The notes beneath the pieces were generated by a model. It was not told the origin of the DNA. It saw only the letters and a list, made by a program, of their open reading frames with translations, and searched no databases. Made by a program: the position numbers and the translations under genes. Positions 1 through 227 of a stretch of 227 nucleotides of DNA are shown one piece after another (positions within the stretch are counted from its first letter, which is position 1; every line of letters begins with the position of its first letter). Origin of the DNA: Escherichia coli (lineage in GTDB: Bacteria; Pseudomonadota; Gammaproteobacteria; Enterobacterales; Enterobacteriaceae); the NCBI RefSeq assembly GCF_003334335.1, contig NZ_QOWQ01000235.1; one strand, 5' to 3'.

Positions 1-58
1 CTAGTGCGGCAATAATGTATGTTCCGATGCTGTAAATTTCCCCGGGTACCAGCCTTCC
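1..58 (-). other. Start of a non-collagenous C-terminal segment ([19 protein letters not shown]...) immediately after the last Gly-X-Y triplet; continues beyond window position 1.
   Basis: Gly periodicity is lost after G57 (next Gly are at residues 62 and 68). Composition switches to hydrophobic/aromatic residues (I, Y, L, A, V), and local GC falls from about 67% (positions 41-227) to about 40% (positions 1-40) by hand count. Confidence 0.55.
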
Positions 59-227
59 GGTTGGCCCTTGTGGTCCCTGTGGTCCGGGTTCACCTGTCGG
101 GCCCTGTGGACCTGTCGGGCCCTGTCTTCCTGTTTCTCCCTGCAAACCTCGTGGCCCCGTTTTACCCGCAGGACCTGCCGGACCAACCGGCCCCGGAACA
201 CCCTGTGCCCCCGCTGGTCCCCTTTCA
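1..227 (-). CDS. Partial CDS (both ends outside the window) for a collagen-like triple-helix repeat protein; reading frame has codons at window 226..224, 223..221, ... 4..2. No start or stop codon in the window.
   Basis: Hand translation of the reverse complement gives 75 codons with no stop. Gly occupies every third position for 19 consecutive positions (G3 to G57), giving 18 complete G-X-Y triplets, then periodicity ends at [19 protein letters not shown]. The truncated upstream codon ends in T, compatible with GGT (Gly), so the repeat probably continues beyond position 227. Such strict 3-residue Gly periodicity is not expected by chance. Confidence 0.8.
56..227 (-). repeat. Collagen-like Gly-X-Y coding repeat region (protein-level repeat, period 9 nt), probably continuing past the window edge at 227.
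   Basis: Triplets in order: [54 protein letters not shown], then a 19th Gly. X is Pro in 11 of 18 triplets; Y is Gln 6, Thr 5, Ala 3, Pro 2, Val 1, Arg 1. The + strand here is strongly C/T-rich, as expected for the antisense of GGN-CCN-NNN codons. Confidence 0.8.
93..125. repeat. Perfect 15-bp direct repeat (cctgtcgggccctgt on the + strand) at 93-107 and 111-125, separated by 3 bp (period 18 nt), lying inside the collagen-like CDS.
   Basis: Read directly from the sequence. On the coding (minus) strand the unit is cagggcccgacaggt, encoding Q-G-P-T-G twice within [12 protein letters not shown]. Confidence 0.85.

Follow-up and report, generated by a model that had tools for sequence, protein, structure and literature searches.

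A 227-nucleotide stretch of Escherichia coli DNA very probably lies inside the collagen-like tail-fibre gene of a lambdoid prophage

The stretch of DNA analysed here, a window of 227 nucleotides with a G+C content of 62.6%, is with a probability of about 0.93 an internal piece of a gene encoding the tail fibre of a lambdoid Escherichia coli prophage (phage PhiR5_1 and related ones), its coding frame being one of Gly-X-Y triplets on the minus strand. This kind of gene is already known, its right frame is already present in GenBank and RefSeq, and we found nothing that speaks against the gene call. The finding carries little weight for biology, the family having been described biochemically in 2012 and the gene being deposited in the right frame; it does hold a lesson for annotation, to which we return below.

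The mechanically produced ORF list of the window has a single entry (1..201, minus strand), which begins with a GTG codon and gives 66 residues, 11 of them arginine when counted by eye. The initial annotation had described this entry in the same terms and had set it aside in favour of a collagen-like frame next to it on the same strand, said to be open over the whole window. We found that this second frame (minus strand, codons 226..2) indeed lacks any stop in the window, and that its 75-residue translation consists of the dipeptide ER, an unbroken series of Gly-X-Y triplets (50..220) and 16 non-collagen residues (2..49). Of the claim that there are 18 perfect triplets, the uninterrupted repeat stands, but the count is a slight underestimate: there are 19 consecutive triplets, and 18 only without the terminal GRL. 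When the window was shuffled 5000 times by mononucleotides, no Gly-X-Y run in the six frames was longer than 7 triplets, as against the observed 19. The Pfam Collagen profile (PF01391), with which the initial annotation had proposed to scan the translation, matches the 75 residues with E=2e-10. The frame is absent from the ORF list because the ORF tool leaves out any ORF that extends past an end of the source; this is the end-truncation effect that had been suspected.

The identity of the gene becomes apparent from its full-length counterpart. The window is 100% identical to positions 46807-47033 of the Escherichia phage PhiR5_1 genome (PV340545.1), and four sister phages match it at 99.1% identity. 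In PhiR5_1 the Gly-X-Y frame is in phase with an annotated CDS of 523 aa on the minus strand (XSB41338.1; L001 3719..5290), of which the window (2..226, minus strand) is an internal in-frame fragment encoding residues 373-447, as established by the full DNA identity and the frame phase. The CDS opens with an ATG preceded by a Shine-Dalgarno sequence, GGGAGA, and closes with a TGA. Thus, the Gly-X-Y frame runs on to both sides of the window, and the true start and stop, which the initial annotation had hoped to find by extending the contig, were located via PV340545.1. The converse arrangement, in which the Gly-X-Y frame breaks just outside the window while the Arg-rich frame continues as a long ORF, is absent: the Arg-rich frame stops at position 1 of the window, and its full length in context is just 120 aa. 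While GenBank labels the PhiR5_1 product a 'hypothetical protein', the RefSeq/PGAP names for the Gly-X-Y frame are 'tail fiber protein' and 'prophage tail fiber N-terminal domain-containing protein'. The gene neighborhood has the order J (encoding the tail tip protein), lom, fibre gene and tail-fibre assembly gene, with the last of these, a 'tail fiber assembly protein' with a DUF4376 domain, beginning 19 nt downstream of the fibre gene. A literature search on phage PhiR5_1 yielded nothing relevant.

Among 5426 complete E. coli genomes the window is present in 36, in every case in the chromosome and frequently at more than one site per genome. Genomes that carry either the window or the DNA of the C-terminal tip described below usually match at more than one place (2-3 in the median and 8 at most), which fits co-resident prophages sharing fibre modules, a situation comparable to that reported for EPclA in O157:H7.

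The domain architecture of the 523-residue protein bears out the claim that the collagen-like frame is the real gene. At the N-terminus is a phage_tail_N domain (PfN, PF08400; residues 1-134, Pfam E=2.5e-42), directly followed by the first collagen-like domain, whose two segments (residues 136-192 and 194-256) are parted by a GDPGGPPG interruption. Next come a Phage_fiber_2 repeat (Pf2, PF03406; residues 263-304, E=8.7e-16), a short Ala/Glu/Lys-rich linker, and the second collagen-like domain (residues 315-431) with 39 uninterrupted triplets. The last 19 of these are the triplets in the window (50..220, minus strand), as delimited by the translation, the PF01391 match, the run lengths and the shuffles. 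The protein ends in a non-collagen tip of 92 aa (residues 432-523) that matches no Pfam family, and the first 16 residues of this domain are encoded by the remainder of the window (2..49, minus strand), a segment that is invariant in all the aligned relatives. As a whole, the protein matches the 'tail fiber protein' family PHROG 366 with E=5e-123. In searches against PDB sequences, residues 1-91 matched chain Ta of 9e7m with E=2e-30 and about 60% identity over 91 residues. A paper citing 9e7m (PMC12617516) uses the name gpStfN for the collar domain, through which the side fibres of Ur-lambda, with three chains in each, are attached to the tail; given this name and the residue range 1-91, we read chain Ta as gpStfN. 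The same PDB search recovered no chain of a T4 gp37 or lambda Stf distal domain, and a PfC domain (PF06820) was not found by the Pfam search.

These features match those of the E. coli prophage collagen-like proteins (EPclPs), which were described biochemically by Ghosh et al. in 2012 (PMC3368898). Of these, EPclA and EPclB were found by circular dichroism, analytical ultracentrifugation and electron microscopy to form trimers with a collagen signature and a dumbbell shape (PMC3368898). The composition of the repeats agrees closely: in the fibre studied here proline occupies 50.6% of the X positions (48.1% in the published EPclPs; PMC3368898), and the Y positions hold Arg or Lys (21.5%), Ala (26.6%), Gln (13.9%) and Thr (16.5%), while Cys, Phe, His, Trp and Tyr are entirely missing from both X and Y positions. 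These are the EPclP preferences, with proline in about half of the X positions, Lys/Arg, Ala, Gln and Thr in Y, and none of those five residues. The G-X-P-G-G-P-X-G interruption of the first EPclP collagen domain appears here as GDPGGPPG, and the variation of length by whole triplets and the location in a prophage tail module are likewise common to both. Within the family, the closest architecture is that of EPclC, with PfN, a collagen domain, Pf2, a second collagen domain, a C-terminus other than PfC and no long coiled coil (PCoil). Since the first collagen domain starts at residue 136, right after the PF08400 match, there is no room for the low-complexity PCoil of 88-116 aa. The EPclC-type example ECED1_2081 has 520 aa with collagen domains of 118 and 117 (PMC3368898), a length close to the 523 aa of the protein studied here. 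Its source strain, ED1a, is not among the 28 genomes that carry the tip studied here; hence, this tip may differ from the published EPclC C-terminus, and our assignment of the fibre to the EPclPs, closest to EPclC, is a match of sequence features that sets the C-terminal domain aside.

Two other systems throw light on how far the likeness extends. With lambda gpStf the fibre shares the Phage_fiber_2 repeat, a gene position between J and lom on one side and a fibre-assembly gene on the other, and the homologous collar domain (E=2e-30; about 60% identity over 91 residues). However, collagen triple-helix repeats stand in the place of the gpStf shaft, the downstream chaperone is a DUF4376 protein, and where lambda Stf has a gp37-like, OmpC-binding distal domain the present protein has a 92-aa orphan tip, so that the C-terminal half shares nothing with Stf. 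As the gp37-like distal domain is missing, we do not file the fibre as a whole-length orthologue of lambda Stf. The second system is the short-tailed Stx2 phage Sp5, whose collagen-like protein ORF67/ECs1228 is essential and was placed at the tail end by immuno-electron microscopy (PMC5155283). This EPclB-type protein also combines collagen-like domains with Pf2 (PMC5155283), but the PhiR5_1 fibre has the lambda-type PfN without a long PCoil, and the PfC domain (PF06820) that forms the C-terminus of ORF67 was not detected in it.

Collagen-like repeats are also the basis of another conceivable reading, namely a protein of the Scl/Lcl type, serving as an adhesin on the bacterial surface or as a lysogenic-conversion factor and not as a virion fibre. 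The NCBIfam models for SclB, SclA and Lcl (NF038329, NF038330 and NF046116) do match the protein with E-values from 1e-42 to 6e-34. The corresponding scores, though, are far under the curated cut-offs (146 of 325, 131 of 400 and 117 of 500 bits) and come from the repeat region alone, and we rejected membership in these families as all three scores fall short. Moreover, the N-terminus is a phage collar domain and not a signal peptide, and the gene sits inside a tail module with a fibre-assembly gene beside it. We therefore regard an adhesin of this type as highly improbable and the tail fibre as the preferred reading.

The Arg-rich frame deserves separate attention because it is the one that the ORF list reports. 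In its full context it is a 120-aa ORF (L001 3949..4311, minus strand) in the +1 frame relative to the collagen-coding DNA. It could in principle be an overlapping gene inside the fibre gene: it is open in all five relatives that we examined, and sequences resembling it exist as predicted proteins in public collections. Its openness can be compared with a permutation in which the synonymous codons of the fibre gene are shuffled while the protein and the codon usage are kept. The longest stop-free run in the +1 frame is 153-157 codons, at or below the 166±32 obtained in the permuted genes, with P(>=obs) of 0.66-0.68. Thus, the Arg-rich ORF is an expected by-product of coding by GGN-CCN-NNN, DNA of this form seldom yielding stops in its other frames, which is why neither the off-frame ORF nor the long antisense ORFs are to be taken as genes. 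It matched no Pfam family even at E<=10 and no PHROG.

The alignment of the five relatives over the window is equally telling. Both indels are exactly 9 nt, that is, one triplet, and the second collagen domain has these single-triplet gaps at two separate sites. In the middle of the alignment, a block of some 55 nt (window 77-131, minus strand) is replaced by other sequence in the relatives. Across this block each glycine of the Gly-X-Y frame is kept, the relative's version being QGPAGGRGPMGPPGLDGKT, whereas the Arg-rich frame turns into the unrelated sequence RALPEGEGRWDRPGWMVKP. Such a complete change of the Arg-rich sequence, with the Gly-X-Y register maintained, argues against an overlapping gene.

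As for the public sequences, 19 predicted proteins match the 120-aa Arg-rich ORF. The initial annotation had reckoned homology to this frame, with none to the Gly-X-Y frame, as evidence in its favor; matches to it do exist, but they are mostly unnamed ENA or Logan gene calls on contigs of about 0.5-1.7 kb, with neither a source name nor a precomputed Pfam domain, on which the true gene is cut short. Most of the calls P0019-P0036 are of this kind. On the one contig that was inspected in detail, of 538 bp (L007 1-538), the Gly-X-Y frame is open from end to end, yet just the 120-aa Arg-rich ORF is recorded. One named match, P0015, traverses all three reading frames and comes from a frameshifted assembly, GCA_900450425.1. 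In that assembly the fibre gene (L008 3062-4534) is broken up over three ORFs, and J too lies in several pieces, which looks like the result of sequencing indel errors and not of biology. Hence, these database matches are miscalls and not evidence of a protein, and we give practically no credence to the Arg-rich ORF as a gene. They also show the risk that the initial annotation had foreseen, that of miscalling the locus from the ORF track alone, to be a real one, since public gene calls on short metagenome contigs record the Arg-rich frame.

The opposite strand poses a similar question. All three plus-strand frames of the fibre-gene region are largely open, and two of them might be proposed as the real gene: a 406-aa ORF in the ORF list (L001 3967..5187, plus strand), whose start part lies at 19..227 of the window, and an imperfect pseudo-collagen frame with a 'GPx' pattern. 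The 406-aa ORF is longer than synonymous permutation predicts, with P of about 0.005 in the window's own gene; in six related and hence non-independent genes, the same length test gave P of 0.002-0.007 in five and 0.063 in L003. However, this excess openness accompanies a depletion in the sense gene: all the potential stops in the antisense ORF require a T-A or C-A junction between codons, and T-A junctions are scarcer in the sense gene than expected (14 vs 20.8±3.3; 27 vs 37.4±4.2). We accordingly judge the ORF, which belongs to no PHROG family, to be a by-product of the Gly-X-Y periodicity and of TpA avoidance and not a gene. The 'GPx' frame has weak matches to PHROG tail-fibre families (E from 1e-4 to 2e-3), but it finds no match in Pfam, and by eye it is Cys-rich and has glycine replaced at 7 of its 18 triplet positions, in which it is unlike any EPcl collagen domain. 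Moreover, all the matches to non-repetitive domains are on the minus strand. A plus-strand gene thus strikes us as vanishingly improbable, and the minus-strand Gly-X-Y frame is retained as the coding one.

Taken together, the off-frame and antisense ORFs make up the annotation lesson mentioned above: in DNA that codes for collagen, several frames stay open, and they do so on both strands. For this reason the wrong frame is what one obtains from an ORF list that excludes ORFs truncated at the ends, or from a gene caller applied to a short contig, and miscalls of this sort are by now deposited in public protein collections.

By homology and from the published work on relatives, the functional steps of the fibre can be proposed as follows. 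Three chains of the protein would, by analogy, assemble into one fibre, which attaches to the tail tip through its N-terminal domains. Stiff shafts would then be formed by the two collagen triple helices, with a hinge at the Pf2/linker region, while the C-terminal tip is predicted to trimerise and to bind a host surface receptor, probably aided by the downstream DUF4376 fibre-assembly protein. The window would accordingly encode the end of the second shaft that is farther from the tail, together with the place where this shaft joins the tip.

The tip itself has a narrow distribution. Its DNA is found in 28 of the 5426 E. coli genomes, and its relatives in E. coli all share more than about 90% identity; outside E. 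coli, an exhaustive phmmer search of 1.84 billion representatives returned only motif-level matches. There were five weak matches in the phmmer search (E from 2.5e-8 to 8e-4), and the four that were read are long Ig-like repeat proteins; we rejected homology to these, judging the resemblance to be confined to the motif I-K-D-x-N-G-N ... D-G. Among the PHROGs there was a single weak match (E=2.7e-4), between the tip and the C-terminal end of a 'tail protein' family. An AlphaFold2 monomer built from an 11-sequence alignment had a pLDDT of 37 and a pTM of 0.23, and the model is unusable.

The second collagen domain and the tip are also found on longer fibres of 653-677 aa, which have a different N-terminus and a long low-complexity coiled coil. 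The phages or prophages encoding these (L002-L004) have an N4-gp56-type capsid and are of the DUF6682 type. Their fibre genes lie at L002 4771-6804, L003 2771-4732 and L004 2771-4759, as against L001 3719-5290 on the lambdoid backbone; L002 contains the window at 100% identity. Hence, a module of the second collagen domain, the tip and the DUF4376 chaperone is common to two backbones, the lambdoid one with J, lom and fibre and that with the N4-gp56 capsid and DUF6682, which suggests that the cassette is exchanged through the collagen repeats. One may go further and see in the tip a previously uncharacterised receptor-binding and trimerisation fold, apparently restricted to E. coli prophages, that moves as a cassette by collagen-repeat recombination between phage types, namely long-tailed lambdoid phages and those with the N4-gp56-type capsid (which we read as Sp5-like and short-tailed); in this full form the proposal is tentative and we think it unlikely. 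The presence of the module on two phage backbones means that the tip and its chaperone could be of interest for the engineering of phage host range.

Some minor observations concern individual copies of the tip. In three predicted proteins, two from ENA and one from NCBI (P0012, P0013 and P0014), it is fused to unrelated non-collagen N-termini, that of P0013 beginning MRVAICDDNQQ; we suspect chimerism in the assemblies, or starts that were miscalled. The tip DNA of three RefSeq genomes (the E. coli matches H44, H58 and H69) bears no annotated feature, and in one of them the adjoining collagen part is annotated as a tail fiber protein; these copies may be truncated or pseudogenised. Finally, on both phage backbones the fibre-assembly gene is followed by a gene with a YadA C-terminal domain, resembling the trimeric autotransporter adhesins (L001 1252-2325, minus strand; L002 2250-3365; L005 565-1695; L006 284-1795), which may be a cargo gene of lysogenic conversion.
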